Part shown: positions 2,023-49,619 of the stretch, piece by piece
Layout of the letters: each line of letters opens with the position of its first letter
How positions within the stretch are numbered: the stretch's first letter is position 1
Source of the DNA: Psammoneis japonica
Taxonomy: Eukaryota
Assembly: GCA_008632985.1 (NCBI GenBank)
Contig: QPGO01000027.1
Span: 62,001-126,000 of the forward strand
Reading direction: 5' to 3'
DNA: 64,000 bases
Program-made: the position numbers and the translations under genes
Notes under the pieces: generated by a model
Told to the model about the DNA's origin: nothing
The model's database searches: none
The model's input: the letters and a program-made list of their open reading frames with translations, nothing else

Positions 2023-2043
2023 CCAACAACAGCAACAGCAACG

Positions 2044-5277: not shown

Positions 5278-5280
<3 letters not shown>

Positions 5281-15525: not shown

Positions 15526-16117
15526 GTTTTGTGATGATGCGAGTCTCTCTTGAAACAAGGTGACCTGAGATTTCTCAAAATGTGTTTTCTAAGCAAGGGG
15601 TCAGCCAAGAAGAAGGGTGTCAGAGTTGTTGAAAATAAAGATTGCTTTTCACTCCTTGTTCAACGCAGCAACCTGCCTCATTGCTCATTGTTGTTCACTG
15701 TTCGTTGCTTAACGCTTTACAGTACAAGTATTCCGCTCGCAACAAAGATGTCGGAAGTCGGACGGACGCTTCACCGCCAATCGCCCGCGCGCTCGCGTCG
15801 TCGCGAGGCCGCCGCCAGCGTGGCCCCTTGCGCGATTCAGATTCTTCAAGGGTGCGCGCGTGGCCCTCCAGCCACGCACGACAGAATCAACGCGACGTGA
15901 CGACGACATCATCGGAAAGGCTAACGTCACGAAAGAGAAACACATTAAATGAAATATAATCAGCTCTTTTATATCAATAACGCGTCATCACTGGTGACGT
16001 TGATTGCGATTGATCACGATACGAAAAGTGGTCACAGAAAGTTCGTTCCAGCTGTTTTTTCCTCTCACAATTCACTCTCATTGATCGTTAATAAAATCAA
16101 CCGAAGACACCATCAAC

Positions 16118-16681
16118 ATGAACGCTCTTGCTCGTACTGCCTTCTCTGCCGTCCCACGGTAAGTTCGTTTGAAAGCCAGAACTTGGTGGATGGAAGGAAG
16201 AAAGACTCAAAGAAGATGGAATGCTCGACGCTTGGGTTCACGAGTTGACGCAAAAGAAGGCTTCAACGTCGTCGTGTTGACACGTGCGTTGCATCCCAAA
16301 AGAACAAAACATCAACTTGGTGTCTTTCTTCCATCTGTTCGTCCAGTCTTGCTTCATGCACTTCACCATCCATACCTTTTATCAAACATGAAACACACTG
16401 CTCACTCGTCTCTTTTCTCTCACTTGTTTCTATTAGTGCCGCTACTAGAACGACTGGTCGCCGTGGATTCAACGCTGGAACACTTGTCACGGAAAAGGAA
16501 ATCCCCATGGGAGGTGCCAAGGTTTGGCTTTCGGACGTGGGTGCCTACCCTGTCATTGCAATCTTGGGCGTGGCTGTCACGGGCTGCTCGGCCTACATTG
16601 CCCACCACTTTTTTTACTTGCCCCGACGTTCGTGCCGACCGTACCAAGCGTCAGTCTATTATCCGCACCTGGGATAGATAA
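16118..16681 (+). CDS. NDUFA4: NDUFA4/B12D-family mitochondrial respiratory-chain subunit, copy 1
   Basis: Exon 1 MNALARTAFSAVPR, intron from 16159 (gtaagt) to ~16436, exon 2 ..VWLSDVGAYPVIAILGVAVTGC..CPDVRADRTKRQSIIRTWDR*. One extra T in the 7-T run near 16609-16615. Confidence 0.75.
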
Positions 16682-17253
16682 AACAAATGGGTGTCGTGTA
16701 TTTATTATACACATGGCGACAATTTGTACCCTTTGCTTTGAATAGAGCGGCAGCGTAGACCATTGCGTTGCTGTAAATTAGAAATGAACAGAATTACGTG
16801 CGATATTATTTGTGGGATTTCAAATTTGCCATCCAGTAGTACCGTACATTGCGTTTTCATGGATTGTCTTGTTTTGCCACCAAACCTCGGTCGCAAGATC
16901 CTTCCGGGAACTGGTTAGCATCTCGAGCGCCGGAATGCGTTTAGCAAGCACTGCGCTTGGCTGCCGCGCTCACCACCTAAACACATTATTTCCCCAGGTC
17001 ATTTACGATATGGTGAGGTGTTTCTTTGTTGTTTTCAATCATAAAAAGGAGGAATGAGAGACTGACGCTACAGTATCTCTTTGGTACTGCATGGATTTTC
17101 TCTCCGTAAATCCGGGAATCGCTCCGCCCCCCTGCCACCTCCACAACGGCTTGCCGCGTTCATCACCATCTACAGCAGAATAGGAAATACAAAACCCATA
17201 ACGACTACTACGTTAATTCTCTCTAACAAAATACTACATCATGTACATAGTTC

Positions 17254-22818: not shown

Positions 22819-23116
22819 GGTTCGTTGTTGTTGTTGTAATGATTGATAAGGACTATATGTGTCAACAACAAGTTCAAAGTGGTAATGACTTCGAGGTTCG
22901 TTTGTTGTGATGATGATTTGCAGTCTGTTTTGTCTGCGTTGAGTGTGAAAAGCGCAGACGCACGCCTGATCGTTTCGTTCGGGCTCAGAAAACAACGGAA
23001 AACGACACGTGTACACACATATCGATCAAGAGATAGACAGACAGACAGACAGACCAAGCACACCGGTAGTACCGCGTGCCCGGTAGCAGGTAGGCGCAGG
23101 GTACCGTACCCGTAGG

Positions 23117-23496
23117 TCTCTAGTTGGTTATCCGTACAAATGCCATAATGCCATATATGGCATTTCTTTCTACGGCGAAACTGGTACTGATTCTACGTAA
23201 TGCCATATAAAATGCCATATTTTGCGCGCGAAAAAAGCGTGCCGGCGATTGATTCGTGGCCCCCGACTGCGACAAACTCATTTCTTATGTATACAGAAGC
23301 CTTCGAATGCCACTTCCATCGATTTTCCCTTATGTATTTCATACGCCCCTATGCCCAGCGGTGTTTAAAGCTTTGCTATCAACGGAAAAACAATTAGGGA
23401 CCATAGGAAAAATAGTGGTGGCGTTTGGGATCAAAATGCCATATTCATGCCATATTTAGGGCAAATATGGCATTTGTACGGATAACCAACTAGAGA
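23117..23496. mobile_element. MITE-like non-autonomous DNA element (~380 bp)
   Basis: Perfect 31-bp inverted repeat tctctagttggttatccgtacaaatgccata (23117-23147 and 23466-23496). Several internal TGCCATA motifs near both ends. No coding capacity. Confidence 0.85.
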
Positions 23497-23943
23497 GGGC
23501 AGGGCGCAGGAGCGAGCGAGCAACAACGCAAGGAACCAAAGCTGATGAATAAACTAAAACAAAAATCAACCTCTCATGGATACGGTACAGTAGCATCCAG
23601 CCCTATCGTATACCTAGTATCAAAGGTGTGCCAGCAAGGGACAGCGTCGCGGTGAAAACTCTCTGGGTTTTGCTGGGGAGGCTACTTTCGTTAAAAGTAC
23701 AACAACACATGAAAGACATGGGGGGAACAAAGGCCAACGCAAGCATGGCAAGAAAGGTGATGCATGAGATGCTACATATTTCCAATATGCATCGTTGAAA
23801 TGAGTCTGTTTTTTAAATTGTTGTCTCTTGTTTCTAATTTACACGATAGTCACGGTCAAAGCTACTGCGCGCTCTATCCAAAATCGCTCTCTTGTTCAAG
23901 AGAGCGGTCCAAAGCATATGTATATACACAATGCCTCAATTGT

Positions 23944-24519
23944 TTATCTATTCCATGTGCGGATAATAGACTGACGCTTGGTACGGTCAGCCCGAACATC
24001 GGGGCAAGTGAAAAAGTGGTGGGTAATGTAGGCAGAGCAACCCGTAACAGCCACACCCAAGATTGCAATAACGGGGTAGGCACCCACGTCGGAAAGCCAC
24101 ACCTTGGTGCCGCCCATGGGGATTTCCTTTTCCGTAACAAGGGTTCCAGCGTTGAATCCACGGCGACCAGTCGTTCTAGTAGCGGCACTATTATAAACAA
24201 GAGAGAGGTGACAGAGCAGAGTGAGCGGCATGATTCATGATTGATGGAAGGTTTTCATGGTTGATGGAGCGAGATCTGATTTACAGTTGGAAAAAAGATA
24301 CCATATCACAATTAGGATTTGTTCTTTTTTCCGGCTTCAATACATGTATCAACGTCGCACGACAGCGTTTGTTTGTTTCACTTTTAGCGCAAACCCGTCC
24401 ACAGTACGCAGCCGAGCAGTTCACCCTCAAGTCTTTCTTCATTCAATCCACCAAGTTCTGGCTTTCAAATGAACTTACCGTGGGACGGCAGAGAAGGCAG
24501 TACGGGCAAGAGCGTTCAT
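23944..24519 (-). CDS. NDUFA4: NDUFA4/B12D-family subunit, copy 2 (inverted duplicate)
   Basis: Same two-exon structure as copy 1 and a near-identical peptide (..KVWLSDVGAYPVIAILGVAVTGCSAYITHHFFTCPDVRADRTKRQSIIRTWNR*). Confidence 0.8.
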
Positions 24520-24963
24520 GTTGATGGTGTCTTTTGATTTTTGTGATGTTACAACAGTCGAAGTGAATTGTGAGACAACCTGCACAAGGAAACAACTGGC
24601 AAAGAATTTTGTGAGAGTTTTGCAATCAACGTCACTAGCGATGACGCGTTATTCAACTATACAGATCCTTTTAAATTTCCATGAAAGCGTTGATTAGGGT
24701 GATGACGTTGTCATTTCCGTTGAAGTCTTCATCCAATTAACGCGGCACATTTCTACGACGATCCGTACGTGGAGCTTACGTATGTGCAGCCGCGTGATTC
24801 TTTTTTGCTGACGTGGTTCGGTTCATCGCGCCTACTACAGACAGACCAAAATATTTGGATTCGACCGGCCGAACGAGCGACTGCCAGACACCGAGGAGGA
24901 ACAAACATGCATCAAGCAAAAATTCAACGCTGTGATCGCATCTCTTGCAACTGTCAACTTACG

Positions 24964-27641: not shown

Positions 27642-30550
27642 ATGAAGTTGCTCTTTGCAACATCTCTGTTTCTCACGCGTTCTCTTGCCAGCAGCGATGA
27701 ATGGCACCGTCATTTACGTGTCCGGCACCTCAACGGCGATGACGGCTTTATCATTTATGGCCATGAAAACGGCTGCATTGTGCCCACCTGCCTTGGCAGT
27801 GAGTGTGGGGCCTTCTTTGCTTCGTGCAACTACCCCACTGACTCAAACACCAATACCCATTGGTATCAGGACGATTCCGGGTTGCTCCACTCCGGTTCGG
27901 ATCATAGTAAATGTCTGCAAGCTGCGTGGGGCAATGTAGTCAACGACGGATCGAAAGTGCGCTACGCCTCCTGCGACGCAAACAAGGCAACCCAACAGTT
28001 TGAGCCTGTTACGGCCTCGGGCAACATCAAGCTAAAGATGCGAAGCGACCTTTGCTTAATTGCTCATGGTAATCCACCATCAAGGACGTTTCCCAGATTA
28101 TCCTCAAAGCTTGTGGCGTGGTTGGCAATAGAGCCATCTGGAGGGCTCTGGATTTGCCTACGACACCATCTCCATCGACACAATCGCCGACCACGCCATC
28201 TCCAACGACACCATCACCAACGACACCATCGCCGACCACACCATCTCCAACGACACCGTCACCAACGACGCTATCGCCAACAACGCTATTGCCGACAACG
28301 CTGGCACCAACAACGCCGCCGCAGACAGGTCTCAACGTCGCTGTCTATTACTATCCTTGGTATGGTAATAATTTTCACGGTGGTAAATATCTCCGGTATG
28401 TCACCCTTTCCTCTCCATAGTATGTAACGTGGTTCGACGAAATGCTGTCCTCATTCAACTCTGTTCTCTTGTTTAATAATTGAAATAGACATGATCTTGA
28501 AATGCAACAGAGGCCAGTGCTGGACGAATATGACGACAGCGATCCATCGGTCATCGCCAAGCATCTCGAATGGTCAAAGGACGCAAACATTCGCACGTGG
28601 GTTACTAGTTGGTGGGGTCCAGATTCATACGAAGACAAGACGATTCGCAATGTCATTCTGCCCCACCGCGATATCGGCGACCTTCAGATTGCCGTTCATT
28701 ACGAGTCAACAGGAAGAGGCAGAAACTCCACTGGACAACTGGACGAAGCACTCATCTTGGAGCGTGCTGACTCTGACATTGCGCACCTTTGTCAGCACTA
28801 CTTCTCCCACCCTAATTACATGCGAATTGGCGGTAAGCCCGTTGTTGTCTTCTACTTGAGTCGCTATTATGAGAGTGCACCAGAGCTCCAGCCGGGTCTA
28901 ATGAGAGAAACGTCGAGAGTCATGAAGGAAGCGGCTCGCAATTGTGGAGAAAGTGGGGTGTATCTTATTGGCGATCACGCTTTCAACGACATCCTCTTGC
29001 CTCTTGACTACCTCGATGCAATAACAAACTATGATGTTTATGGAAGTATTCAGGCGTATTCCAACGGGGAGTACTATGCGAAACAAAGTGGCATAGACCA
29101 GTACGTTGCCATGCAAGAAAAATGGCGTACCCACGCACAGCAACAGGGGAAAGGGTTCATTCCTGCTGCCAGTCCAGGCTTTAATGACCGATCCGTACGC
29201 TTGGAGGCTGACCATGTGCCGTTGTCACGCAAGCTGACACCGGATGCAGCGTTCGGTTCGCTCTTTGAAGAGTCTCTGAACAAAGCCGTCGATATGGTGG
29301 ATGCTTCGACCGGAAATATGCTGCTCATCAATTCTTGGAATGAATGGCATGAGGACACTCAGGTAAGTTCTACGTTGCGTCATGTATATCAAAATGCTTG
29401 TGTAATTAAAAATACCAATCGAAACTTTGTTTCTTAATTGCCACCAGATGAACCAGTCATTGGGTTCTCATCCAGCAAGTCTTCTCATCTGACAATGGAT
29501 GTGGAATATGAAGGATATGCCTTTCGTTATCTCGACATGCTACGAAAATTACCATCGGAGTCTCTTCCTCCACCTCCTCCTCCTGAAATTCCTCCTCCTC
29601 CCCCTGAAACCACCCCTCCTTCAGACTGCCCATCAACAATGGCGAACCCCGATGATCTATATCTGCAAGTGAATGACGTGGTTTTGAATAGCTACTGTCG
29701 AGATTTGTATGGGGGGAGCGTGTCTGCAGTGCGAGCTGGTGGATACGACTGGAAATGTCAGAACGCCGACCAATCGATTAGCGACGAGATTTCAATTGCT
29801 GACGTTTGCGCTCGGGAGGTTAGCCCCAACCACGTGGAGGTGCTTCTTGGTGGAACTGAAGATGACTGGGCATGCGTGAATTGGGAAGAGGCTCGTTACA
29901 GTGTCGTGCCTGTTATTGTCGTGGCGAGCGACTTTGTGTCGGATCGGAATGCAATATCTGGGGCCGTTGAATCAGTGACCGCGACGGTGGAGCGAGTTCG
30001 CGAGTGGTACGAAGAAAAGATGACCTCCGGTAAAACGTTCCGTTTAGGTCGTCCCATTCTTCGCCTTTCAAGCCGAACAGGGGAATACTGGAACGAACTT
30101 TCCTGCAAGACTGCCATTCCTCAAGACCGCCCGCAAGAATGCTTGAGCAATGATCCTGAAGCTAAGCGCTACGAATATCTTTACCAAGCATCGGGAGAAG
30201 CACAAGAAACCTCGCTTGGAGTATCACCTCAAGATATTACTGTGCCCATTTTCGTGTTTACGGGACCCGACGCTTCCCCATTCTGGCTTGGCGCGGCTGC
30301 CGCTGGTCAATTCAGTGTGAATCCTCCCAACGTTGCAGTATGCCCAGTGAACAGTGACACTTGTGGATTATACTCGATTGCACACGAAATAGGTCATTCG
30401 TTCAATCTGGCGCACAGCTGTGAGAATCTAGCGGTCCCAGAGCCACAATGCTATAATGGAATCATGGAGAACCCTCCCGATGTCCTCAATGCTGTCCTCT
30501 TTGAGTTTGAGCAGGACATTCTCGACGGTTCTTGTTTCTTCCGTGCCTAG
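27642..30550 (+). CDS. Secreted multidomain protein: ricin-B lectin, Pro/Thr linker, GH99-like glycoside hydrolase, metzincin-like peptidase
   Basis: Signal peptide. Ricin-type C..QxF motifs. (TTPSP)n linker. YYYPWY, WVTSWWG, YFSHPNY.RIGGKPV, PGFND, INSWNEWHEDTQ. HEIGHSFNLAH. Introns ~28396-28489 and 29363-29447, plus indels. Confidence 0.75.
28158..28322 (+). repeat. 15-bp coding tandem repeat encoding TTPSP/TTLSP
   Basis: Units such as acgacaccatctcca and acgacaccatcacca, about 11 copies. Confidence 0.85.
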
Positions 30551-33359
30551 TAGAGGAACAACAATTGCTGTGACCTCTCTACTCGACGGCACCAAGCCAG
30601 GAATGAATGTGTCTACGTATATATTTGCTTATTATATTTAATCTTTATAGTTTACTCGCTTGAGCCAACATGGTGTGGCAGGATTATAGTTGCGTTAATT
30701 ACTCCCGGTAGAGAGACTGAAGCGGTCGACGACTTTGGTGCTGAGAACTTGGAGGAACTTGAACCTGCTCAAGGTGACACATTGCGGGACGGGCGACTTT
30801 ACAGATGCTGGGCCGTCAAACAGTCCTTTTTGAAACAGCGGCAACTTTTTATGTGCACAGTCACACTCACAATTTGTTGGTTGGGGTTTCACCAACAAGA
30901 TGATCATAAACAATCAACCAACACAGTGATTGCTGGTCAATGCTGGTGCCCTTGGGGCAGTCTTTTTTGGCTGGCTGAGGAACAAAACTGTGTGGACAGA
31001 TGTCTCAGACTGGCATCAAGATGCTGTACATGCAATCAAAAACAAGTGCAAGGCTGCTGTTGCCGCCATCACCCCACACCCCCAGGTGCAAGAACACGCT
31101 CTACAGCTGAGCCAAGAACCAACAATGTGTGACACATGTCACCATGACCCACCTCAAGACCCGTTGTTGGGTGTGCAAGTCTCAGAGCCAGCACTTGCAT
31201 CACTCTGGCTGTTGTTGATTTCTTCAACATTGTGGCCACATCTTCCCTTCCATGTGACCACCAGGACAACCTCTGTCACATCCACCCCCACCAAACTGTT
31301 GACCATGTTCTTGTGTGCTCAGATCACAACCACCTCTCTGTTGAACCCCCCCCCCCCCATCTGCCACAATGATGAACCACATGGTCAGGTCCATTGCAGC
31401 CCATCTCTGAATGAAGTCTTTTTTGTGAAAAACTGAGCAAGAGCTTCAACAAGTTGGCTGGGCTCCACCACCATGCAAATGAGACACTTGAAAGAAGTGC
31501 AATGCTTTGGCAAAAAGCAGCAGCAAAATGACTTGTTGCAAGAACAAAAGAGCACACCCTTTCAAAAATCTGGTGGAGAAACTTGCAAATGTGTTTGTTG
31601 CCTTGCCAAGGACCCCAAGTCAACTTGAGATTTTCTGGTCATCAAAAAGTTGATGCACCATGCTGAGGCAGCTGTGCTCAAACTTCTGATGCTGAGCTTT
31701 GGCTTGCAAAGCTGTTGTCAGCAAAAAAGGGCAAAGAGACTTCTGAGGAGCTCTTCTTTGCCATTGCTGTAGTTGGCCCAAGATTAGAAAGCACTGTGGC
31801 TGTCTTCTGCTGTGCCAAAATTGTGAAATCCAAAAATCCCATCCAGGGGCATTGACCAAACATTCTTGGAGCACACAACAAACCTGGCGACATTGCTCTC
31901 ATGGAATTTTGATCCCCCTCAAGTGGCAGCTGGCACACACAGTGCACCTCATCATCACAAATTCACCAGCCATGGCATGGGCATGAAAACAACACAGAAA
32001 GGTGCTCTCTGTCATCAACTTTTTGACAACAAGTTCAAAAATGCACTCTTGCACAAATCACGGTCTTTGGGCTCAAAGTTTGCTGAGTCACCAGCCGTTG
32101 CAGCTGAGCTTTCTCAACAAGCTTTAAAGCTGACCTGCAAAAGCCAAAGCCTCTTCAGCAACCTCAGTGGCTCTCAAATCATGGCCATGATGCTGCCTGT
32201 CATGAACCCACTGCCCACTCCAATTCTTGGACCATTCTTTTAGTCTGAGAGCCACTCCAAGATGATTGACATGACCTTCAATGTCAGTGCAAGCTGCCAT
32301 GCACCACACTTGGCCATCTTGGTGACACCAGCACAGATGATGTTCAAGTGACTGAAGCCCTTCATTCACAACACAGTGCACATGGGATGAACAGCCAAAT
32401 TCATGTTGCATGCCTGCAAAGTTGCTGAGCCCACACAAGGCAGCACAGCTGCCTGCTGTTGTGCAGTTGATGAGTTTGCATCCAACAGAGCAGACCCAAC
32501 AGGCAGAGTGGAAGAAGTTTGTCAAAGATGTGAGAAAAAATCCACAGAAGTCATCATGCATGCATGCAAACCAACCACCAGCACCATGGGCTGATCAACC
32601 CCCCGCACCATTTTGTCTGAAGAACTGCAGCTGTCAGAGACACAGCCCAATGCACTGCCAGCTCTGCTTCCACTTTTGTGTGGCAGAGAACAAATGTTTG
32701 TGCATGCAAGTGTGAGTGCCAGCAGGGCCATGCAAGTGCACATCACATGTGAGCTCCAGTGCCTGCATTTCTGCCACCCGCTGTCTGTGACCCAGCACTC
32801 ATCATGATGTTCTTGGGCATGCTGCTTTTGGCTGTTTTCTGTCTTGTGCCATCACAGTGTGTGTTGCAGCTCTGATGAAGCAAATGCAATCTCTGTTGAT
32901 CTTGCCTTTTGGTGGGTGGAGAGGACAAAGTGTGTGCATCTGGGACACCAATGATCTGGGTCTGACCGTCTGCCACAATCTGGGCATTTCTTGACTTTAA
33001 CACCAGATTTTTGTCAACTTATGAGCCAATTCTCTCCTTGAACACAACATGAGAACTGTGTGAGTTTGTGAGCTTCTAAAACCCAAATTGCTTCTCACTT
33101 TTAAGTGCGATCATTCCTTTCACACAATGCAGACCTGCACCCCAATTGACATTTGGGGTTTCTTGTTCTTTTAACACAAATGTTGCTGCTCATAATCCAC
33201 CCTCCTTTTCTGCCAACTTGTCCCACATTTTGTCTCATTGCTGTGCCATTTTCAAATCCAACTTCCCAATTGCCACACGTTGTTGCATCTGGGCCGCATC
33301 GCAGAATGTTTTTTTTAATTTTCACTTGCCCAGATGTCATTGTTTGTTTCAAATTAAGT

Positions 33360-34493
33360 TCACACACCAGTTTGGTTGGTGGCCATTGCGGCATTTGCTG
33401 CCGCTCCGTTGCCTGCAGCCACCGCCTGCAATGGCAGGTCCTCTCCCATTGGCGCCGCCCATCCTTCCTCTCTCTCCTTTCTTTTTTCCTCTCTTTTGCA
33501 TTTCTTGTTTTCCTCCTGAGACAAGTTTGTCTTCTCTTGCCTTCTCTCCTTGAACCATGCACCGAATCCCTGGTTGTTCTCTCTGTCTTTCACCACCCAC
33601 TGATGCAGATCATTGCACTTCTCGATCCCCTCCTTGCTCCATCCTTGGTTCCTCTTTGCTGATTCCCCCGCCGCCAGCGCTGTGCACTTTGCAGGAGCAG
33701 CATCTTTCACAGTTGGCTTTCTTCTCCTTGCAATGTTTTCTTCCTTTTCCAATTTCTCTGCCGTGTCCTTCACCTTGTTGCAGCAGTTCAAGCACACTGG
33801 CAGAGCAAACGCCTCCGACGAAACCGAAAGCCATTCCTGAAGCATGTCGGTTGTGCTTCCACCAAACTGCACTTGTCCCACCACCGTCGGCACCACAGTT
33901 TCCAAGAACCGTGCACATGTGTCCTTGTCATTTCTTCCCTTTGTCAAGTCTTCGTAAGCCACCAGCGATCCCTCTAAAGCAGCAACTGCACAGACAATGG
34001 CAAAGGAAGAGACACTCATCCTGTTGGACAATCGCCTCCAACACAATCACCGGCACGCACACATCCACTCACCTGTCATTCTCCTCCCAATGTTGTCCTG
34101 CACACTGTTCCTCTTTCGGTTGAGTTTGGTCCTGAACACCTCTTTGCATTCTTCCCAGAACTTCCCCGGTGAAGACGCCATGCTCCTTGGCTCCTGCAGA
34201 ACCAATTTCATGCAATCTCCTCCCACGGCAAGTTCATGATCGAAGATTGTGAACTTGCGACATGGCCAAACACTCTCATTGACAACCTTGGTCAACATCG
34301 ATGCTGTCAATTTCTCGCTCACTGCCGGTGCACGATCCAACACAAGACATCCCTCTGTGGGAGTCACCACCGAACTTGAATCGCCACCTGCATGCTGGAA
34401 TCTGTTCAACTCCCCATGTTCGTTTCTTTGTGCATGCAACAAGGCCGCCACCGCAGGACTCATGGCAACTTCATGTGACACCACACAGATCAA
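33360..34493 (-). pseudogene. Decayed TE-associated hypothetical protein
   Basis: VVPTVVG..SSEAFAL.V(C>Y)LN(CC>YY)..K(C>Y)T..NQGWSKEGIEK(C>Y)NDL(H>Y)..V.KDR resembles an ORF family I associate with diatom DNA transposons. Contains an internal stop. Confidence 0.5.
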
Positions 34494-36044
34494 TCCAACA
34501 ATTGTGTCAGTTTGTCAGCAATTCTTTGTCATGTCCTTTCTCAATCTCACTTGCCGCTGGAAGTTGCACTTCCTCCCTCCGTCGCTCCTGTGAGAACTGC
34601 ATCCTCCATTTTTTTTACCTTCCCAATGGCTTCCTCTTTTTTGGAACTTCCGTCCTTTCCTGTCGCTTTGTGAAAGGCAAGTTGCGAAAAGAATGCACTT
34701 TTGCATGTGATTTTCTCGGTTTTGTTGTTGCTCGCGTGTCCTCTCTCGATTCAAACAGGTCTTTGCATCATTTTTGAGTTCTCATTCCCAACCCCATGTT
34801 TGCACTTCTATCAACATTTCACTGTTTTGAATTGTGTGCCTTTTTCAGCCAATCCAATGCACCAATGAAGATTGCCATGTCATTCAAATCAATGCCAAAC
34901 AACATGTTGTATCTCCTTGTGTCAGTGCATGCATTGCGCTTCCTTGTTGATGCAACATCTGCTTCCTTTGGCACATTGAGTCGTGTCAAACCTCCTGTTT
35001 GTCATCCCTGTCTCAATGGGTCATTCCCTCTGCTTCCCTGACACCACATTTGTCCAGCTGCTCTCTCTGTTGCCCAAATTTTCCAATCCACTTTAATGTC
35101 CACTGAAGTGTGTCATTGTCGCTAAGATGTGGTTGTTGTGAGTCATTCCCGTTGCAGGAACGCGTGTTCCCTCTGTTGCAATCACGTGCCGCCAATTGAT
35201 GATCAAATTGGTCGTTTTGCTGGTGGTGGTGTGGAATCACACGGTGGTGCGGCAAGCTTTGCCTTCTCCGCCAAGGTCATTTGTAACCCCGCTCTCTTTG
35301 CGGCACAAATTCGAAGCCGTTTTAATTTCCTCGACGTTGGTGGTGGTGTTGGCGGTTTTGCGATTGCCTGTCGTCTGCTTGTTCCTGCCTGCAATGCCTG
35401 CAGCATCGAGTTCCACCATCCCCGTCATGATCTTGGCTCTCAGTGGTGTGGTGCCACATGGCACAACAATGCCAGTCGCTTCCCGACCCTGATCAATCAG
35501 GGCTTCCTCTCCGAAGATGATGCTGTTCGTCGGTTGCACCGTCTGAACAACTTAAAGATTTTCTTCAATGGCTGCAATGGGCGAATGCTTTTTTTGACAA
35601 CAACGCGACACAGAACCAACTTGAGGAGATGCTGTCCAACGAGTGTCCTGAAGGTGCTGTTGTCATTTCACTGGACATGATGTTTTGTGTTTGTGCGCAC
35701 AAATGGAGGCATGGAGCATTCTTTGTTCCTGCCCATCCAGACAATCTGTCGTGGGGAGGTGGTGTTGACAGGCACCTGCTTCACAAGTGCACCAAGAAAA
35801 GAGACGATGCCGTGGAGACTGGGCATTCCACCAGGAACGACCTGGGGTCTGACATCAAATGTAAATTCAAGCCTGCCAAAAGTGGGTGACTTTGCAATTT
35901 CACTTTGTTTGTGACGTGACTGTCGTCCATGTGAGCAATGCATTGTCAATTGGCCCTTTACACAAACCCACTTTGCACCTGTGTCAACTTGCTGCTTTGC
36001 CAGTTTTGCATTCCAACACATGCTTGTTCACACGCTTGCTGTGT

Positions 36045-36941
36045 TCACACACTTGCTGTGTCGAAATTGTGGACTGGACATGCCATGTTCCTTCCATCCG
36101 AACTCGTTTTGTTGGGCAAAGCTTGGTGCAACATTCTTGCATCAAAAACAAATGCAGTGCCTGCTTCTCCAACCAGCAATTGTTTTTCCAAACCCAACCC
36201 AACCAATTGTCTTTCGCGCTCCTTCTCATTCAATGTCACCTCACAACTGTCCGGCCACATCTCCACTGCACCATTGTGCTCCGTCATGTCATCAAGGAAC
36301 AGAAACATGGTGAAAATTTTGTTGCCAGGTGACAATTTTGTTTCCACACAATCGCGATGAATTTCCCCCTTTGACCAGAAGTTGGATCTTGAACTTGAAG
36401 CAGGAGCATTTGCTGCTGTGTGCCGGGATGTCTTTCTGCTCAAATCACCCGCCAGGGGAAAGCCAGGAATTAACTCCAACATTTTTTCTGCCAACCCAAT
36501 GCCTTCCGCCTTTTCCTTTTTGTCAATGGTGAACTCACCGACAAAACGGTGTCCTTCCTTTTCTCCCTTCCTGCTTGGTGCCTTGTTTGCAAGCGTTGTC
36601 ATCTTGTTGAGCAGGGGTGGTGGTGTTTTGAATTTTTGCAAGCAGCCTTTTTTTCTTTCCTGGTGCTCTCTTTCTTTGGACCCCACCTTCTTGCTCTTGA
36701 CGACATGAGATTTCATTTTGCCCGGGCATGTCAGTGACTTGCCATGTTTCTGGCATGAAGTTGTCGGCCAACGGGCAAATTTCCGGCATCTGTTCACAGA
36801 ACACTTCCGCGCCATTCTCTGAAGTTGCCTGTTCCACCAAATCAAATGGCACCTGGTCTTTTTCTTTAAGTGGAACAGACCCAATGTAGCGAAAGTCCGC
36901 ACCCATTGCTTTGCAACAAAAACGGCTTTCTTGCCAAACAT
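36045..36941 (-). pseudogene. PhyH-type 2-oxoglutarate/Fe(II) dioxygenase with an N-terminal Cys/His cluster
   Basis: IHRD..FLFLDDMTEHNGAVEMWPDS..GEAGTAFVFDARMLH.A.PN.T..R gives the HxD...H facial triad and distal Arg. Upstream KCSVNRCRKFARWPTTSCQKHG. Confidence 0.7.
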
Positions 36942-37295
36942 GTGTTGCCAACAGCGGTCTGTCTGTTGTGGGCACCACGGGTGTTTTTTTCACAAACAGT
37001 CCCATGTGATGTTTTGACAACGGCAGTCCATCTGTCGGGTGCATCACAGACGTTTTTTTGCCAACAGTTGCATGTGATGTGATCTTCGTTGATCCTGTTT
37101 GCTGAATGATCTCATCAAATTGGTCATCCCAGCTGTCTCAAAAGCACAGAAAACAATTTTGTTGCTCACAATTCTGTTGGTGATGATGTGAGATGTTTTC
37201 ACATCACCACAGCGGCAGACACAAAGCAAAAGCTTCCATCCACCGCACATTCCGCACCACAAACAAACCATTGCTTTTTCAGCACTGCACCCATC

Positions 37296-37410
37296 TGTTG
37301 ACAGAGCAATTTGGTGTCACTTTTCATTGTTAGAACTGTTTGTTAACAAAGTAATTTGGTGTCACTTTTCTGTTGTCAAACATGTTTGTCAACAGAAGAA
37401 TTTGGCATCA
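37296..37410. repeat. ~45-bp tandem repeat, 2.5 copies
   Basis: tgttgacagagcaatttggtgtcacttttc / tgttaacaaagtaatttggtgtcacttttc / tgtcaacagaagaatttggcatca. Confidence 0.8.
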
Positions 37411-38231
37411 GTCATTTGTCAATGCATGTGTGTGGCAATGGACACCTTTGGCACCACTTTTTTGCTTGTGCACTCAACACTGGCCTGTGCAGTGTCATGA
37501 CACAAAGTGCATCTCCCACAGCAAAACACATTCTCCCGAATCTTGTCCAAGTCGCTGATCAACTCATGTTGAGCAACAAACAGATGTTGTTTGGGTGGCT
37601 CCATTTCTTGTCTTCCGCAGCCTTGTCATTCCCTTTGCAGAACAACAACCTCAAAATGATCCCACCCCAAAGAATCACACCAAATCCCTTGCCTGTTAGG
37701 CCACGTTGCCGAAATGGAACCAACAAATCTCTTTTCCGTCCGATGCATCGCACTTCTCTCCCGATGACATTCCACCCGACTCAACCTGCAGTGTTGACCA
37801 ACAATCCATCTGGGCGTTGTCTCCCGCCGGTGCATCTGGCCCCGTTTGGCACAGAAAACAGCCTTGACACCAAATTGAGGCTCTGTCATTCTCCCACACG
37901 TTGGGCAAACAAACGCGGTCATGTTTGTTTGTCACTCAAAAAAAGTGGTTTGACAGATCACTTGATCCGCGGCATTGTGCTGATGATGTTTGATGTGAAA
38001 ATCTTTGTTCGAGAGCAGTGGGAAGAGCAATGCATGCAACCCAAACCACCTTGGTGAATTTGCAAAATGGCCGGTGCACCCAAGCTGCATTAGATTGGCT
38101 TTGAAGGAGGCCGCCCTTCTAGAGCTGGCTCAACGAAAGAAAAAAAAGGCATGCAAAAAAATCATTGATGCTCGCCACTTCCAAAACAAAAAATGCAAAA
38201 GATCTGCAGCGGCACAGGTGGGGATTGCATC

Positions 38232-38657
38232 TTGCGTGCTGCTTCCACTTCCCATCTGTTTCTTGCCTGAAAAATTGTTGTTGATGTTTCCTAGAATGAC
38301 ACCATTGCCAAAGCTCCAACGATTGCAACTGGTGTCGATTCCTGTGTGGAAGGTGCCAAAGACGACGACAATGACACCATGGGCGGAGACGGATGTCATG
38401 GATGACGAACAACAAATTTGGACTGTTGCAGACAGTGAAGAATGTTCATTGGTAAGGGATTTCATCTGTCGTGCTGCTTCCCTTTCCCATCGGTTCCCTG
38501 CCTGACAAAGTGCATGTTGATGTGTCCCAGAATGACAGCAATGATCAAAGTCAAACGATTGCCACCGGTGTCGACTCCATTGAGGTGGCCACCCATGACA
38601 ACAACAACGACTCTACATGGGCGGAGACAGATGACATGGTTGATGAACATCCAATTG
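38232..38657 (+). repeat. Diverged direct repeat, period ~235 bp
   Basis: cgtgctgcttcc..ttcccatc..tgcctga..gttgatgt..agaatgaca..ggtgtcga..catgggcggagac.gatg occurs at ~38232-38420 and ~38467-38657. Confidence 0.8.
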
Positions 38658-39300
38658 ACACTGGCAGATTGTTGGTGATTGGCATGGAAGTTGGTGGTGA
38701 TTTAAATGGAAGTGACAAAGATGCACGCGACAGCATTCGAACTCAACGTCTGGTGGATCTTGGATGTGACGTTTGCACAATTGACAAGAGGATGCGCCAT
38801 GCTTCCTCGCCAAAGCACATGGAGTGTGATGTTCTAAGTTTGCACAGATCAGCAGAATGGAAGAGATTGTCCAAAGAGACAAAGTTCGATCACATTTGCT
38901 TTGACTGCGTGTGTTCAAACCCGGCCTGTCTCTTGGCTTCAGTTCCAAAGGGACCTTTTTTCCAAGATGCACTCAGGGAGCTGCTGCGGTCGCTGATGAC
39001 AATGGGACATTCTTCCTGCCTGCATGCAATCTTGTGTTTTCCGAGTTTTGGATCGAATGGCAGAAACAACATGTGTCGGAAGAGTCCCCAATGCGCTTCT
39101 TGCATGAAGAGCAAGTGTGCGACGAGGTCCCCATCCTTCGAGACGAGGCACAAGCAGACATCTCTGCCTGCGGAAAGTTTTGTACAAGGGAAGAATGCAT
39201 TGAGGATTGTGAGTCAAACACTTTTCTCAAAATTTTGGAGCACACAGTCATTCGGCGAATGAGGGATAAAGCTGGCTCAGTCTCAGCCTTTTTTTTTTGA
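38640..39300 (+). pseudogene. Decayed ORF with a Rossmann/SAM-methyltransferase-like strand pattern
   Basis: RLLVIGM..RD..R..L..LG(C>Y)DV(C>Y)TIDK..H..CD..KFD(H>Y)I(C>Y)FD(C>Y)..FF..L..GTFFLP, with a frameshift near 38980. Confidence 0.4.
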
Positions 39301-41496
39301 TGTCGTTGCACGATGTTTCCGGGAAACGCTTTCAACACACTGGTGCCAACGGCTGTTGTCATCCTCTGGATCCAGACCCAATGCAGCTGCAGTGAGCAAC
39401 TCCACGAAAGCTTGGTCAAAAAATTGGCAGACATGAAGGGGGTCATCAGAACAGTGGGAGGGCACATGGCAGTTGTGAGACAACCTCTCGGTCTTGCTTC
39501 GGCCCATGACTCTTCCACAAATACGTTCTTGATTGAGGATGTCCCCCAACAGGGAGTTGCAATGCATCACAGCTCTGACATGGTGGTGTTGAGTGCCTGT
39601 CATTGCACGAACAATGGGTGGATTCACCTGGCAATGAAGCAGACCATGGAGGACCTCCTTGAGAATGCGGTGACAGTTGGCAACAACAAGGCACCCAAGC
39701 TTGTCTTTCTTGTCTTTCCTGTCCAAATTGGGCATGAATCCGAGTGGATGCCAACAACAGCAGTCGCGGTGTGCGTCCTCTTGAATCATGGCAAGTGAGT
39801 GCATTGCAGGCTCCATCCCGTGAGGATTGACTGCATTGACTCCGGTCTTGTCCAAGCAATTGACAAGGTGAACGTGAAAATCAGATGCCATTTCCTTTGC
39901 ATTGGTGCAACGTTGTTGCCACTCGCCGTCACCCATGTCTTGACTTTGAGTGGACAATCGCCAGTCCCCAGGATGATCCGGGAACGACATCTCAAAACCG
40001 TCAGCCGGGCTAGCGCTGGTTTCCAAATCGCCATCTGTGGGGGGTGGCACACAAGGTGACCAGACATCATTTGGATTAACCTGCAACTTGGAAAGATCAC
40101 GGAACACTGGCTCGGTGAAGAGATCCTGCAAGGTCTCGGTGAAACTGTAAACCGGGAAAGGTGGGGAGCAATGACATTTGGGTCCATCCTTCTGTTGCTG
40201 TGTTGGGTTGTCACATTCTAGCATCACAGTGGCAGTGCGGGGGAGAGGAACATTGGGAAATAACCCCAGGAGTTGCTTCATTGCCACGGCGGCAGTGATG
40301 GGTGGCTTGGACAAATCCAGTCTTTTTTCTGCATGCTCTTAATGCAAAATTCTCATCACTTTGTCGACAAAGTCAATTGCAACACCTGACCGACAACACA
40401 AATGCAGCAAACGCACCATGGGTGCAATGCTGGGTGAGCAGACTGGAGGCACATCGAAATCCTCATCGGGTGCGACATCACGCGGCGGGCCAAGAGGGTT
40501 GTGTTGATCGAGGGAGGAAACAGGATCTTCTGTCGGACCGGAAATTGAGGGGGGGCCACAACTGCCATCGCGACGGTCGGCTCCAATGAACTCGGGAACA
40601 TCCACAGGACTGTCCTCTCCAAGGGCGGACACACCATCATCTGCAAACAAAACAAATTGGCGGACATTTTGGGAGGCTGCACTGGTGGCAGCAAAGTTGG
40701 CAGCTGAGCGCAATCGACCAGAGCGTCTGACGGAGGGTGGGCGCAGTCCACTTCCGGCAGAGGGAGGACAAGCTGGAGAAGAATTGTCCATTGGTGTGGG
40801 AGGAGATGGAGCTGGATTCCAAAGGACTTTGGGGAGGGGAGGAGGGGGTTTGTCGTCGGAGAAACCAAACCCAGCAGGATCATCATGGTTGTCCAGTGAT
40901 TCATCATGGTCGTCATCTGGAGGGGGAAGTGCACGGGCGGCAGTGGAAGATGTGGCATGTGGGCGAAGGGACATTTCCTCTTTTTCACGGCAGGGCAAGC
41001 ACTTCTGTAGATGAAGGGCGATGTTGGAAAAGGGAACATGGCAATGGGGACATTTGGGTTTGTTGGTGTTGGATCCAAGGGAGCCGACGGAGGCAGAATC
41101 CAGAGGATGAGAGGAAAGAGATGTTCTGCCGGATGAAGAAGACAATTGGGTTGCACGGCGCAACTGTGTCAATGGGGGATGGAGACCAGATGCTGCAGTG
41201 CAGTGCCAAGATGGGTGATGCTGCACGTTGTTTTCAGAGTCAAATCCACGTTGTCCGCAATGAGGACAACTAAAAGACTTGGTGGAAATGGCGGAATGGA
41301 GGCAGTTAGTTGCGATGTGCCTGCTGAGGCCACATTCGGAAAAGAAACCGGTTCGTTTGCACCATGGACAAACAAGACCATCAGACGCATGGCCGATGTG
41401 CACAGACGAAGGAGTTGAGAAGAGAATCGAAAGCAAACAGTGGGTGCAGCAACAATCACTTGGGGACATGGTGAGGGTGGAAACACAGAGGTGCAA
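39283..41496 (-). pseudogene. Plavaka-like DNA transposase, decayed and apparently C-terminally truncated
   Basis: N-terminal C2H2 fingers (CPWC..H, CPHC..H). Core reads (C>Y)LDKTG..GMEP..SL..W(H>R)PLGFMPNL..N(C>Y)HRIL..L..LLGD....RICG..R..C, matching the Plavaka transposase pattern. Confidence 0.7.
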
Positions 41497-44372
41497 CGTG
41501 CGGATGGACGGGGAGGAAGGATGGAATGGGCAGGGAGAGAAAATTGAGAAAACAATTGGAGTCTAGATTGACGGACATGGGCAGCGATTTTGATCCAGAA
41601 AGTTGATTGACACACAATCCAGAAATTAAAGTGGAACCAAATGTGCACATGAGGCTTGTCGGATGGGGGGGCAAATGGTCAAATTGAGGAACACAGATGT
41701 TTGTTGTTGAACATTTCAGAAAATCTGGCTTGTCAAATCAGCACGATCTTGGATCAAAGGGAGAAAATGTTGGGTTTCATTTCAAGAAATCTTGACGGCC
41801 AGTGCGACACCTGGATCATTGGTGTCCCAGATGTGGAGGTCACTCCTGTGTGATGCGCTGGAGTTGTTTGTGTGAAAACAAGCCTGGCGGGACAACCCCA
41901 GCTCATGTTGTCACCATCATTGCAACATCTGAGTTGCAGCTGAAGACAAGTGTCACAAAGAACAATCCCACGACACTCCATGACATTGCCTCACACAACT
42001 GCAGACCATCTCTGCAGATTGACAGCAGACAGACAGACCATCAGAAAACAATGGCTGGTGGCTGATCATTCTCGATCAAAAACAGCAAATCTGCTGGAGT
42101 GTCAACAAAACTGGAAACACTGCAAATGGACCACAACAGATGCCACAAGAATTGACCACAAAATTTTCATCCGACAGAAAAATGTCTCTGTGATCTCTTG
42201 GAGGGAGTTTGCACATCACAAACACCTTTCAACCACACGAGCTGCTTTCCATCCCAGCTCGGTGATGCCACGTGTAAAAAACAACCCCCCGTTTTTAACC
42301 AAATGCCCACTTTGATCGACTGACAGCATGCAGATACGAAGCTCAGCACACTTTTGGGGGCTGGAATGGGGGTGAACGTTGGTCACCAACCAATCACTGA
42401 ACATTGACCCTCGCACTTGCCCCCATGCAACAAAGGTGCTCCACGAAAAGTTGGTTCCATTTTCAAACACCCGACACCATGAACAACACATGCTTGCTAC
42501 ATTCTTGCAAGACATCGGTTTGAAGAGTGTGACACTGACAATGCTCATGTCTTGTGCATTTTGTGGCTCTAGCGGGGGTCAAATCTAGCCAATTCTTCCA
42601 AAAACTTTGAGTTGAGTGGGTCACATGGGATTCAAGACACGTGACTTGCTGCACAGTTGTTGAGCCTTTCTCCTTTCTTGACTCCAAGATTGGATGACAA
42701 CATCAACACAAGACCTGTTTCATGGCTGTGTTCTGTTCTCTGATCCATGGCCAGCCTCCTGACAACTGCATTTGACCTCTTTCATGCTGCAAACTGGCAA
42801 AGCAATCCTCGAATGCTCATTTCAAGTCACACTTTTCTGTTTTGAGATTTGACATTTGCAACTTTGCAACAAATCTAGAGTGGGCACGAGCCAGGAAGAA
42901 GCTCTGTTCACTGCTGTTTGTCATTCTGTAGAATGGCAGCACATCAGAACAATGTTGTCAATGTTGTTTGACTGCTTTTTTCTTGAACCATGCACCAACT
43001 TCATTCTGCGCTCTCGCTGCCATCCGCCCGACTCTCCTCCATCCAAGAATGCTTGGCTGAATGTGTTGCAGTTGCTTTGCCAAAGTCTTGCATGTGTTCG
43101 TCTGTTCAATGCCATTGCTCAAATGGGACAATTGACACGACAATGACATTGGATTCGTTCATGTGCTGCTCATGCCAGGAAAGACAAAACAAGAATTGGC
43201 TGTGGCGGCAAGAAAGTTGAGTGAGACAACAAGTGGTGAGCCTTGGACATGTTGACAACACAATTTTGATTTTAAATTTACTTGCCTTTTTATGAACTCG
43301 GACTTCAACACATGGGATTCCGAAAATCCGGCAAATGGCGAGTTGATGCATTGTCTGCATGCAACATGGTGCAACGACAAAGTGAAACAGCATGTTTCAA
43401 TGTTTCTCGCCAAAATGAACATCTCTGAATGAACGGTTGCAGCTGCACATTGACGAGGGTCTGACAGAGCTTCTGTTGCAATGGTCCAAAAAACGACGAA
43501 TGTTCAGACACCTCATCCACCGCGTCAATGTCATCATCGGCTCTGGCGGGTTTTTGACAATTTCTCCGTGTTGTCACCACAAGATGGTCTGCACACTCAT
43601 CTGGAGCATGCTGGCCATGCCAGTTTGAAGCCATTTAAGGCTTGGGTCTCGCAGCTGCAAATTTGCAAAAAATGATTGTTTGTCAGCCCCGATGGCTGCA
43701 CCCAGAAGGCAACAACACAAGTTGAAACAGAGACAAAAGGACAAACAAAGTCTTTCATCTGTTCATCAGATTTCCTTGAGAGAATGAGGGGATCTTCACC
43801 TCTCACTCTCTCCCCAAGATCTTCTGTGTCTGGTTGGAGCATGCTGGAGAGAAAGAAGAGCGGCCGAGAGAGAGGGTGCAGGAGATGTGCTCTCATTTTC
43901 AGGCAGCCTCGAGCAAGCCCAACAAGCAGTGGAAAGAGTTGCAGTTCCTTCTCTGGACTGTCATCTTGCAGATGCAGCTCTCGGATCGCATTCATCACAG
44001 ACATCCAACGGGGCCTGCTGTTGGCTTCAAGCCGCCGGGCTGGCTGCTGGAGTGGCCAGCTGAACGCTTGTCTGCGCCTTGCGCCGGATGGTTCCCTCTC
44101 AGAACGAGAACAACCGCGGCACGAATCATATCAAGAATGCGGCATCAACTCGCGCAACAACGTGGGTGATGCCGGATGCCGATCAAAACGAACAACAGAG
44201 AACAGAATGAGACTACATCATGCATCAGTGCATGGATAGTCTCTAGAGGTGTATTGTGCATCACACGCGACGGTTCCGTGCTGTGTAATATTATTGTGCC
44301 GTGCAAGAAGACAAGAAGCAACCACTGGGTAGGGTTTGCACATTAATCGATACGAAAAGCAAGAACAACGCA

Positions 44373-47113: not shown

Positions 47114-49044
47114 ATGAAGAAATTCTTGCTTGTATTTCTCCTGCTTACATCATGCTCTTGCTCTCTAGCCCGCAAGAATGAGCATGCAAATTTACGTGTG
47201 AGGAATCTAGGCAGCGAGAACCACCACAGCTTTACTATTTATGGCATTGACAATGGTTGTATCGTTCCCACCTGCCTATACAACGCGGTATCCTTCGCCT
47301 CGTGTGATTACCTCGTTGACTCGAATCTCATTTCACATTGGTGGCAGGACAGTGCGGGGTTGATCCATTCCAGCTTGTTTCCGGAAATGTGCCTGCAGGC
47401 CGCCCACGGAAACGTCCTTGTGGACGGATCAAACATGCGTTTCTACCCCTGCAACGGAACCAAGGTCAATCAACAGTTCGAGCCTGTTTCTGCCTCTGGT
47501 ACGATCAAGCTGAAATCACGGGATGACCTTTGCGTCGTCGCCCACGGTTCTCCGCCTGTAAAGGATGTGTCTGAGATTATATTCAAGAAATGCGACATTG
47601 TGGCAACAGAGCTATCTGGCGCACACCGGCGTTGTCCTCCTCACCGCCTCCACCCTCTCCTCCTCCTCCAGACTTAGAAGATGGAAGCTTTTCATTTATG
47701 GCATTGACAACGGTTGCGTTGTTCCTACTTGCTTTTACAACGCTGTTTCCTTCGCCTCGTGTGACTACCCGGTCGACTCGAATCTTATTTCACATTGGCG
47801 GCAAGACAGCACCGGGTTGATCCATTCAGCTTGTTTCCAGAAATGTGCCTGCAGGCCGCCCATGGAAACGTACTTGTGGACGGATCAAACATGCGTTTCT
47901 ACCCATGCGACGAGCACAAGGTCAGTCAACAGTTTGAGCCAGTTTCGTCCTCTGGTACAATCAAGCTGAAATCGCGGAGTGATCTTTGTGTCGTCGCCCA
48001 CGGTTCTCCGCCTGTGAAGGATGTGTCCGAGATTATTTTCAAGAAGTGTAATGTCGTTGGCAATAGAGCTGTATGGAGCGCACCTTCTGTATCTCTGCCG
48101 CCGCCACCACCACCTCCTCCCGACTGCCCGTCAACAATGGCGAATCCAAATGATCTGTACCAGCCTTTGAATGACGTCGTTTTGAATCGCTACTGTCGAG
48201 AATTGTATGGGGAAAGCGTCTCTGCAGTGCGGGCTGGTGGCTATAACTGGAGATGTCAGAATAATGACCAGTCGATTAGCGACGAGGTTTCCATCGCTGA
48301 CGTTTGCGCTCGGCAGTTTAACCACAATTATGTGGAGGTACTTCTTGGTGGAACTGAAGATGACTGGGCATGCGTGAATTGGGAAGAGCTCGTTACAGTG
48401 TCGTGCCTGTTATTGTCGTGGCAAGCGACTTTGTGTCGGATCGGAATGCAATGCTGGGGCCGTTGAATCAGTGACCGCGACGATCGAGCGAGTTCGCGAG
48501 TGGTACGAAACAAGATGTCGTCTGGGAATACGTTCCGTCTAGCTCGTCCTATCCTTCGCCTTTCAAGCCGAACAGGGGAATACTGGAACGAACTTTCCTG
48601 CAAGACTGCCAGTCCTCAAGACCGTCCTGAAGAATGCTTGAGCAGTGACCCAAAAGCTAAGCGCTATGAATATCTCTACCATGCGACGGGGGAGGCGCAA
48701 CTAACGTCACTTGGTGTATCACCTCAAGATATAACCGTGCCCATCTTTGTCTTCACGGGACCCGACGCTTCCCCATTCTGGCTTGGCGCAGCTGCAGCTG
48801 GCCAGTTCAGTGTGAATCCTCCCAACGTTGCAGTATGCCCAGTGAACAGTGACACTTGTGGATTATACTCGATTGCTCATGAAATAGGTCATTCGTTCAA
48901 TCTGAGCACAGTTGTGAGAATCCAGCGGTCCCAGAGCCACAATGCTATAATGGAATCATGGAGAACCCTCCCGATGTCCTCAACGCTGTCCTCTTTGAGT
49001 TTGAGCAAGACATTCTCAACGGTTCTTGTTTCTTCCGTGCCTAG
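47114..49044 (+). CDS. Secreted 2x ricin-B lectin + metzincin-like peptidase (paralog of 27642-30550, lacking GH99; frameshifted)
   Basis: Signal peptide. Two near-identical ricin units (~47230-47625 and ~47688-48085). Peptidase region closely matches 29620-30550, including HEIGHSFNL. Confidence 0.7.
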
Positions 49045-49619
49045 AGGAACAGCAATTGCTGTGACCTCTCTACCCGACGGCACCAAGCCAGGAATGATTG
49101 TGTTTACGTTACTACACAAATTCCTTCTTTATATTGCTTACTTAGATATAACTTGAACTTTTTAGTTTACACGCTTGAACCGACATGGTGTGGCAGGATA
49201 TAGTCGCTATAACTTCTACCGGTAGGGGAGACTGAAGCGGACGACGGCTTTGGTACTGAGAACTTTGGAGGAACTTGAACTTTTTCAAGGCGACACATGG
49301 CGGGTTGACGGGCGACGTTACAGATGCAGGGGCAATGGTGCTTTTTTATCGGTTACCTGATTGACGAAAACGACAAGATAAATCAGAGAGTTGAATTGGT
49401 TTCCTGGATCGGAAGAGATCGTTTTAAGTCTTGATATATGATAATTCCGTGACTTCTTGAAAAGCAGTGTGCATCGTGGTCAGGGATAGCTTAAGATGTG
49501 TGGCATCCTCATCGTCTGAAGCGTAAGATCTCGGTGCATTTTTTGCATATTACTCTAGTAGGTACATACATTGAAATCAAAATTTAAGCATCTATAAAGA
49601 AACCCCTCACGATCGGGTT

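Follow-up and report, generated by a model that had tools for sequence, protein, structure and literature searches.

What removes a dinucleotide almost completely from one stretch of a genome, and what decides which copies escape? A 64-kb window of Psammoneis japonica DNA, the whole stretch analysed here, raises this question for TpA (TA). At a G+C content of ~47% across its whole length, the window holds four sharply bounded TA-poor blocks (1-6000, ~30750-44000, 52250-53750 and 62500-64000; Table 1), the second of which contains an 8.9-kb Plavaka-like DNA transposon. The analysis below indicates that the few surviving TA steps are sharply biased in their flanking bases, and that the blocks are probably silenced mobile or repeat DNA whose TpA steps were lost by transitions at the DNA level, at rates that depend on the flanks.

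Computed per kb, the observed/expected ratio (O/E) of TA is 0.0-0.22 in the blocks, against 0.28-0.99 in kb windows lying wholly or largely outside them, and the block borders are sharp to within 250-bp bins. Pooled over both strands, the TA ratio is 0.06 in the blocks and 0.56 outside, TG and CA each reach 1.73 as opposed to 1.17, and CG stands at 0.32 as opposed to 1.02. Per-kb TG+CA values attain 1.5-2.0 in the blocks, with no consistent strand bias of TG versus CA, and of the other twelve dinucleotides ten shift by at most 10% between blocks and outside, AT by 13% and GC by 14%. Among the dinucleotides ending in A, TA alone is lost; AA (O/E 1.25 in blocks, 1.17 outside), CA and GA are kept. 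DNA polymerase eta, whose WA hotspot exposes A after A as well as A after T, does not fit as the agent, given this undepleted AA.

The TA steps that survive in the blocks were classed by their flanks as YTAR (pyrimidine before, purine after), mixed or RTAY. A first-pass annotation made from the letters alone had tallied the survivors of region 32990-36900, and a full listing reproduces its count exactly: 23 TA, comprising 13 YTAR (10 TTAA, 3 CTAA), nine mixed and one RTAY, the GTAT at 34910. Its further remark that YTAR accounts for five of the first six TA of the leftmost block is borne out as well (TTAA, TTAA, CTAG, TTAA, CTAA, then GTAA). Across all four blocks, the 89 surviving TA divide into 54 YTAR, 30 mixed and 5 RTAY, compared with 211, 837 and 482 among the 1530 TA outside (chi2 = 139, P = 8e-31), and region 32990-36900 by itself departs from the 13.8% YTAR seen outside (13 of 23, binomial P = 1.9e-6). 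The enrichment is strongest for TTAA, at 32 of 89 in blocks and 62 of 1530 outside (odds ratio 13, P = 1.6e-19), and persists when TTAA is set aside from the YTAR class (odds ratio 5.6, P = 3.7e-8).

Two further baselines were applied. The 581 outside TA that are not in long open reading frames (ORFs), where stop-codon avoidance cannot depress YTAR, contain 17.9% YTAR and 5.7% TTAA, from which both the blocks (P = 1.5e-18) and region 32990-36900 (P = 3.6e-5) differ. Under a first-order Markov expectation drawn from the blocks' own dinucleotides, TTAA (O/E 3.45) and CTAG (1.75) are in excess, CTAA/TTAG, GTAA/TTAC and CTAC/GTAG lie near 1, and ATAA/TTAT (0.57), GTAC (0.45), ATAC/GTAT (0.35), ATAG/CTAT (0.11) and ATAT (0) fall progressively below it. 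The flank-dependent survivor spectrum is not a product of chance: the comparison of NTAN tetramers that the first-pass annotation had proposed, corrected for base composition, finds survival to be non-uniform on all three baselines.

The strength of the flank effect can be estimated from the pyrimidine-purine (YR) steps themselves. Because all the changes are transitions, the R/Y class of the flanks is conserved, and the classes around all YR steps provide an internal baseline for the original numbers of TA. On this baseline the blocks are estimated to have held 118 YTAR, 465 mixed and 267 RTAY sites, with survival of 0.46, 0.065 and 0.019, respectively. A model in which the two strands are hit independently, with a per-strand rate ratio of ~5, predicts 43 mixed survivors, 30 being observed, and assigns 84% of the changes at mixed sites to the TAY strand; the two strands behave near-multiplicatively.

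Resolving the flank into single bases sharpens the rule. In a Poisson model where each strand contributes according to the base 3' of its A, log-survival per strand relative to A at position +1 is -0.71 for G (confidence interval (CI) -1.05 to -0.34), -1.70 for C (CI -2.14 to -1.32) and -2.69 for T (CI -3.38 to -2.17), so that protection ranks A>G>C>T, and this model improves on one that reads only purine or pyrimidine (likelihood-ratio P = 7e-6). The next position also matters, since A at +2, or T at -2 when viewed on the opposite strand, occupies 98 of 178 strand contexts where 55 are expected from block composition, an excess present for each of +1 = A, C and G when taken alone. Protection is not due to AT-richness, because ATAT (0 observed, 6.5 expected) and TTAT (ATAA/TTAT ratio 0.5) are the most depleted contexts. 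The 5'-TAY preference put forward by the first-pass annotation therefore stands in that the lost TA are those with TAY on one strand or the other, and is replaced, as regards a clean purine/pyrimidine division, by a graded four-base rule with a +2 effect. Its caveat that the preference is not absolute also holds, given that a 45-bp tandem repeat in the transposon reads GTTGAC, GTTAAC and GTCAAC in successive units and TTAA thus changes there.

Survivor counts are symmetric and for that reason silent on which base pair of the TA step changed. Polarised sites, with TA assumed ancestral, fit TAY>TGY (equivalently RTA>RCA) in nine of 11 cases. X1, possibly from the source sample, is the one sequencing run listed as containing this DNA, and no RNA run is listed for it. 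Comparison of the window with the contigs of run X1 yields 1036 places of difference, in 40 of which the flanks were examined; among these 40, five of the six mixed-flank differences between TA and TG/CA fit the rule, and at the 62.4-kb duplication on the border of the fourth block one of two sites does. In the transposase frame of the transposon, Cys codons (TGT or TGC), every one of them following a pyrimidine, occupy three alignment columns (96, 161 and 222) where relatives have 54-81% Tyr, and across seven block ORFs Tyr accounts for 2 of 2040 residues, compared with 3.2% outside (Cys 5.2%, His 4.2%). The products of change are skewed as well: mixed-flank YR steps stand at 1559 YTGY+RCAR to 1056 YCAY+RTGR in blocks and at 1631 to 1484 outside (P = 4e-8), and the share of lost mixed-flank TA+CG that went to YTGY/RCAR is 0.74 (CI 0.67-0.81), a skew not assignable to TA rather than CG because CpG decay confounds it. 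Between the copies of a diverged direct repeat in the first block, sites flanked R_Y, which form ~26% of TA+CG outside, are over-represented among the discordant places, as expected if R_Y sites are hit on either strand. From this thin polarised evidence we infer that the changed pair is the one beside the activating flank.

The comparison with run X1 also gives some indication of timing. Three of the nine TA in the single-copy part of the second block (30907, 31028 and 31770) read CA or TG in the run X1 contigs, which may reflect a process that still runs or ran recently, or a difference between alleles or strains. Over 30577-32962 the two sequences differ at eight places in total, with TA in the window and CA or TG in the run at 30620, 30622, 30907, 31028 and 31770, and the reverse at 32523.

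Terminal inverted repeats (TIRs) and a frame related to DDE-type transposases identify the element inside the second block as a DNA transposon. Similarity between its TIR arms extends inward with gaps, CTGG in one arm stands against CCAG in the other, and no target-site duplication was established. Over 32.8-43.6 kb, run X1 contigs reach a word depth of 1200-5000, against ~58 in the flanks, that is 20-85 times single-copy depth, and differ from the window by transitions at 822 places and by transversions at 204. A large eukaryotic protein family shows homology to the transposase frame (297 relatives at E<=1e-3, the lowest E being 1e-64), and tblastn with eight relatives points to the same single frame (E down to 2e-81). 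Although the window's own transposase ORF has no Pfam match even at E<=5, one of 12 relatives scanned passes the cutoff for the Plavaka family PF18759 (26.9 against 26.3 bits) and another falls just below it, and a protein-language-model look-up returns Plavaka as its lead (score 0.95, 180 shared features); the label Plavaka-like rests on these signals. A metagenome scan for close transposase relatives gave 40 pattern matches, none of which was confirmed. The transposon also carries a PhyH-like 2OG-Fe(II) oxygenase frame, for which a word-based homologue search with the ORF as delimited, and with no longer or shorter form of it, returned no match. In fungi, elements related to such transposons frequently encode TET/JBP-type oxygenases.

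Table 1. Blocks, transposon parts and repeats of the window (R, purine; Y, pyrimidine)
Feature	Position	Strand	Description
Depleted block 1	1-6000		11 TA remaining: 8 YTAR, 3 mixed, 0 RTAY; CG nearly gone too
Diverged direct repeat	516-779	+	8 places TG in one copy, CA in the other; flanks 5 R_Y, 3 mixed, 0 Y_R
Single-copy part of block 2, heaviest depletion	30835-32936		TA O/E ~0.05, CG ~0.07; depth ~60
Plavaka-like DNA transposon, 8.9 kb, multi-copy	32937-41833		48 TA: 29 YTAR (15 TTAA), 16 mixed, 3 RTAY; CG ~half depleted
Left TIR	32937-32961	+	25 nt, 92% complementary to 41809-41833
Region of the first survivor tally	32990-36900		Left part of multi-copy transposon; per-kb TA O/E 0.04-0.14, CG 0.50-0.60, TG+CA 1.62-1.71
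PhyH-like 2OG-Fe(II) oxygenase frame inside transposon	36048-36989	-	Pfam PF05721, E=2.4e-7, 31.7 bits (cutoff 22)
45-bp tandem repeat	37296-37405	+	Units read TTGA, TTAA, TCAA at the same place
Transposase-homologous frame	39298-40569	-	One in-frame TAA at 40339-40341, in TTAA; almost no Tyr
Right TIR	41809-41833	-	Pairs with 32937-32961
Remainder of block 2	41834-44000		Single-copy 41808-42361; another repeat ~42400-43600
Depleted block 3	52250-53750		1 TA remaining (TTAG); strong purine skew
153-bp direct duplication across block 4 border	62412-62714	+	Outer copy two GTAA; inner copy GCAA, GTGA
Depleted block 4	62500-64000		8 TA remaining, 7 of them TTAA

Together, these observations are probably best explained by a process that would act on silenced mobile or repeat DNA, of which the transposon would be one instance, and turn almost every TpA in it into TpG or CpA by transitions. 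How likely each TA is to change would be set by the adjoining bases, with each strand read on its own: the A:T pair would change most readily with T after the A, then with C, then G, and least with A, and A at +2 would protect further. Since a TA would survive only where both strands are poor targets, TTAA, followed by CTAG and CTAA/TTAG, would be left to dominate the survivors, a pattern suggestive of unequal loss and not of gain. Action of the process at the DNA level is indicated by the nature of the element, a DNA transposon with TIRs, and by the single-copy flanking DNA that is affected with it; present-day repetition would not be needed, because single-copy 30835-32936 is even more depleted. 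The eight TG/CA discordant pairs between repeat copies place change after insertion. The agent would be an enzyme with a footprint of several bases, and the leading candidate is a TadA/ADAT-type adenine deaminase that would act on DNA, as has been proposed for Bigelowiella natans; a thymine-modifying enzyme that reads RTA is another, and would leave an identical footprint. No gene for a candidate enzyme was seen, in an analysis that made no search aimed at one.

Several observations weigh against differential loss of this kind, and some of them favor gain. The polarised evidence amounts to 11 sites rather than a spectrum from many copies, and when two block classes are used to apportion the skewed products to TA and CG, the estimates overlap widely (TA 0.77, CI 0.44-1.13; CG 0.71, CI 0.36-1.03). 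The excess of predicted over observed mixed survivors in the two-strand model is nominally significant (P = 0.047), and the fit of the four-base model to the ten tetramers is marginal (deviance 12.9, 6 degrees of freedom, P = 0.045), with TTAA (32 observed, 26.1 fitted) and CTAG (9, 4.4) above it and CTAA/TTAG (13, 21.7) below. The three flank classes occur as 29/16/3 in the transposon and 25/13/2 in other block DNA (P = 0.96), and proportions that stay unchanged between the younger transposon and the other blocks weigh against pure decay, because decay predicts a shift toward YTAR. Moreover, the TTAA that forms the in-frame stop of the transposase is demonstrably derived, its relatives having E, D or K in that column, and TC/GA is 10% lower in blocks by O/E, with TT and CT 7-9% higher, about the size that regeneration of YTAR would need (54 of 1035 YCAR+YTGR sites). 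These last points would follow if TA loss had been context-blind and near-complete and YTAR had since been remade from CA/TG by an APOBEC-like YC>YT activity, for which R/Y logic gives the identical ranking YTAR>mixed>RTAY; one site does read TCAA in the window and TTAA in run X1. We nevertheless regard such regeneration as an unlikely source of the whole pattern. It predicts 62 mixed TA where 30 are observed (Poisson P = 1e-5), and in its uniform form, from CA/TG, it is rejected outright (chi2 = 150, P = 1e-27), leaving TTAA still 5.5-fold over. The TTGA, TTAA and TCAA of the tandem repeat are most simply two losses from TTAA; the TA of the single-copy block that differ from run X1 are ATAA, GTAC and GTAG, which a YC>YT gain would not make; and TA per kb is lower in the older blocks than in the younger (3.0 versus 5.4). 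Some contribution of gain to the surviving YTAR is nevertheless likely, because of the derived TTAA, the low TC and the equal class proportions.

Flank-dependent loss also has to be set against explanations in which certain sites are shielded, or in which no DNA-level mutation occurred. The excess of TTAA and CTAG, both palindromes, over what the two-strand additive model expects, with CTAA/TTAG falling short of it, is what one would see if palindromic sites were shielded, for example by N6-adenine methylation or a bound protein, from an editor that reads TpA only. A tetramer-specific shield, however, predicts neither a +2 effect, which is found alike for +1 = A, C and G, nor the gradient between C and T, and the gradient persists among sites other than YTAR (GTAA/TTAC ratio 1.06 against ATAA/TTAT 0.5; CTAC/GTAG 0.72 against ATAG/CTAT 0.10), so that protection, like regeneration, seems improbable to us as the main cause. 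Much less credible is ADAR-like A-to-I editing of transposon RNA, fixed via reverse transcription, even though the changes are A>G/T>C after T and ADAR is described as favoring U before the edited A in the discussion of a recent preprint (bioRxiv 10.64898/2026.01.13.699255). Its TIRs and transposase frame mark the element as a DNA transposon, the adjoining single-copy DNA is the most depleted, and only TA is lost, AA being unaffected. TAG, moreover, is relatively spared, and ADAR favors a 3' G. The blocks might finally owe nothing to mutation, being foreign DNA that avoids TA and CG by nature or DNA in which selection keeps TTAA; the composition itself is all that speaks for this, and we give it almost no weight. 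The TG/CA discordance between repeat copies and between TIR arms, the conserved Tyr replaced by Cys in the transposase, the Tyr content of its relatives, which is a normal 1.3-4.7%, and the differences of TA versus CA/TG between the assembly and the run X1 contigs all run counter to it.

Loss of CG accompanies that of TA to varying degrees, with an O/E of 0.02-0.6 in the blocks. Segments 1-5500 and 30850-33000 are poor in both dinucleotides, whereas in the transposon TA is at ~0.08 and CG at ~0.55; since TA is there nearly gone and CG half lost, TA loss is either faster than CG loss or a separate process. Surviving CG show little dependence on their flanks (P = 0.73 for the blocks with heavy depletion, P = 0.003 for 33-44 kb), and their loss may be a process apart. 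Decay of CpG in silenced transposons through cytosine methylation and deamination explains the parallel conversion of CG to TG/CA, but it cannot remove TA, and the lag of CG loss behind TA loss in the transposon and its weak flank dependence set the two apart. According to matched passages of a published study, diatom transposons are methylated and diatoms possess DNMT4, related to RID, the enzyme of fungal RIP (PMC9998398).

In the remaining blocks, a Pfam scan of 130 block ORFs recognised no mobile-element protein beyond the transposon block; across the whole scan PhyH alone scored above its cutoff, four other reported families falling below theirs. Purine/pyrimidine-coded self-BLAST, blastn, and tblastx between blocks found no second copy of any block within the window. 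The + strand of the third block contains, per kb, 353 G, 166 C, 336 A and 145 T, and its minus strand has an open frame of 317 amino acids with 8.2% Cys, in which no family was recognised. The genes in the DNA between the blocks are of an ordinary eukaryotic kind and encode a UAA-type sugar-nucleotide transporter, a sulfotransferase, a PARP domain, a GH99-like protein and paralogous M12 metallopeptidases. The M12-type paralogues lie at 29438-30620 and 47930-49110, with segments 86-98% identical; their paralogy (29615-30808 with 48113-49327) stops at the border of the second block, which starts at ~30835, and the pair yields no polarised sites. Elsewhere in DNA of normal composition, an inverted repeat pair of ~600 nt (16103-16704 and 23921-24534; 83-96% complementary) has its copies 7.2 kb apart, TA O/E is unusually high (0.99) in the kb window 23001-24000, and a gene outside the blocks includes a coding repeat of 15-bp period in nine overlapping copies (28141-28335).

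The only report to date of targeted hypermutation of invading DNA at TpA is a 2026 preprint. A quantitative flank rule adds to this a means of discriminating between an adenine deaminase, a thymine-modifying enzyme and site protection, and of recognising such blocks in other genomes. It is possible, and we advance it only tentatively, that the graded rule described here (TAT>TAC>TAG>TAA, A at +2 protecting, T-Y-T-A-R-A-like sites surviving) is the footprint of an undescribed eukaryotic enzyme that edits A:T pairs in silenced mobile elements, as part of the same defence as the chlorarachniophyte TpA hypermutation and widespread in algae of the SAR group (stramenopiles, alveolates and Rhizaria).

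Among known systems, repeat-induced point mutation (RIP) of ascomycete fungi resembles the process in P. japonica in disabling repeats by transition hypermutation in sharply bounded blocks with a dinucleotide preference. RIP changes C to T mainly at CpA, which raises TpA and lowers CpA and TpG, and it is ruled out here by its opposite direction, TA being lowered and TG/CA raised in the blocks; single-copy DNA is, in addition, affected in P. japonica. The deaminases of the TadA/ADAT kind require T or U before the edited A, which at the level of the footprint matches the loss of TA alone, and the TAC context is well hit. As the first-pass annotation had stated, and as passages of a published study state, native TadA depends on UACG and the derivative TadA-8e favors UA (PMC12296453). 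The P. japonica footprint departs from this preference in that TAT is the most mutable context (-2.69) and TAC less so (-1.70), and in the protection by A at +2; a preference for G at +2 (TACG) is unreadable because CpG itself decays.

The closest parallel is the chlorarachniophyte Bigelowiella natans. In the preprint describing it (Mettrop et al., bioRxiv 10.64898/2026.01.13.699255), mutation-accumulation lines show de novo A>G/T>C changes at TpA only, with 231 TpA mutations listed, in an integrated giant virus and virophage, at a rate ~1000-fold above that of the genome and with G:C>A:T nearly absent in the hypermutable regions; clusters in which TpA is scarce and CpA+TpG abundant show an enrichment in transposase and reverse-transcriptase domains, the authors propose an ADAT2-like adenine deaminase, and the main text carries no analysis of flanking bases. 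Literature searches and a 2025 diatom transposon preprint, at the level of listings, abstracts and matched passages, contained no description of TpA hypermutation in diatoms. Both systems, P. japonica on indirect evidence, convert TpA to TpG or CpA by transitions confined to sharply bounded blocks of foreign or mobile DNA. They differ in that de novo mutations were measured in B. natans whereas P. japonica presents an accumulated footprint, in depletion, which is far deeper here (O/E 0.06, against a Rho of 0.45 given in the preprint for the region derived from a nucleocytoplasmic large DNA virus), in the additional loss of CpG from the P. japonica blocks, and in lineage. The same rule in two such distant algal lineages, if true, would imply a shared and old genome defence, opposite in direction to fungal RIP.

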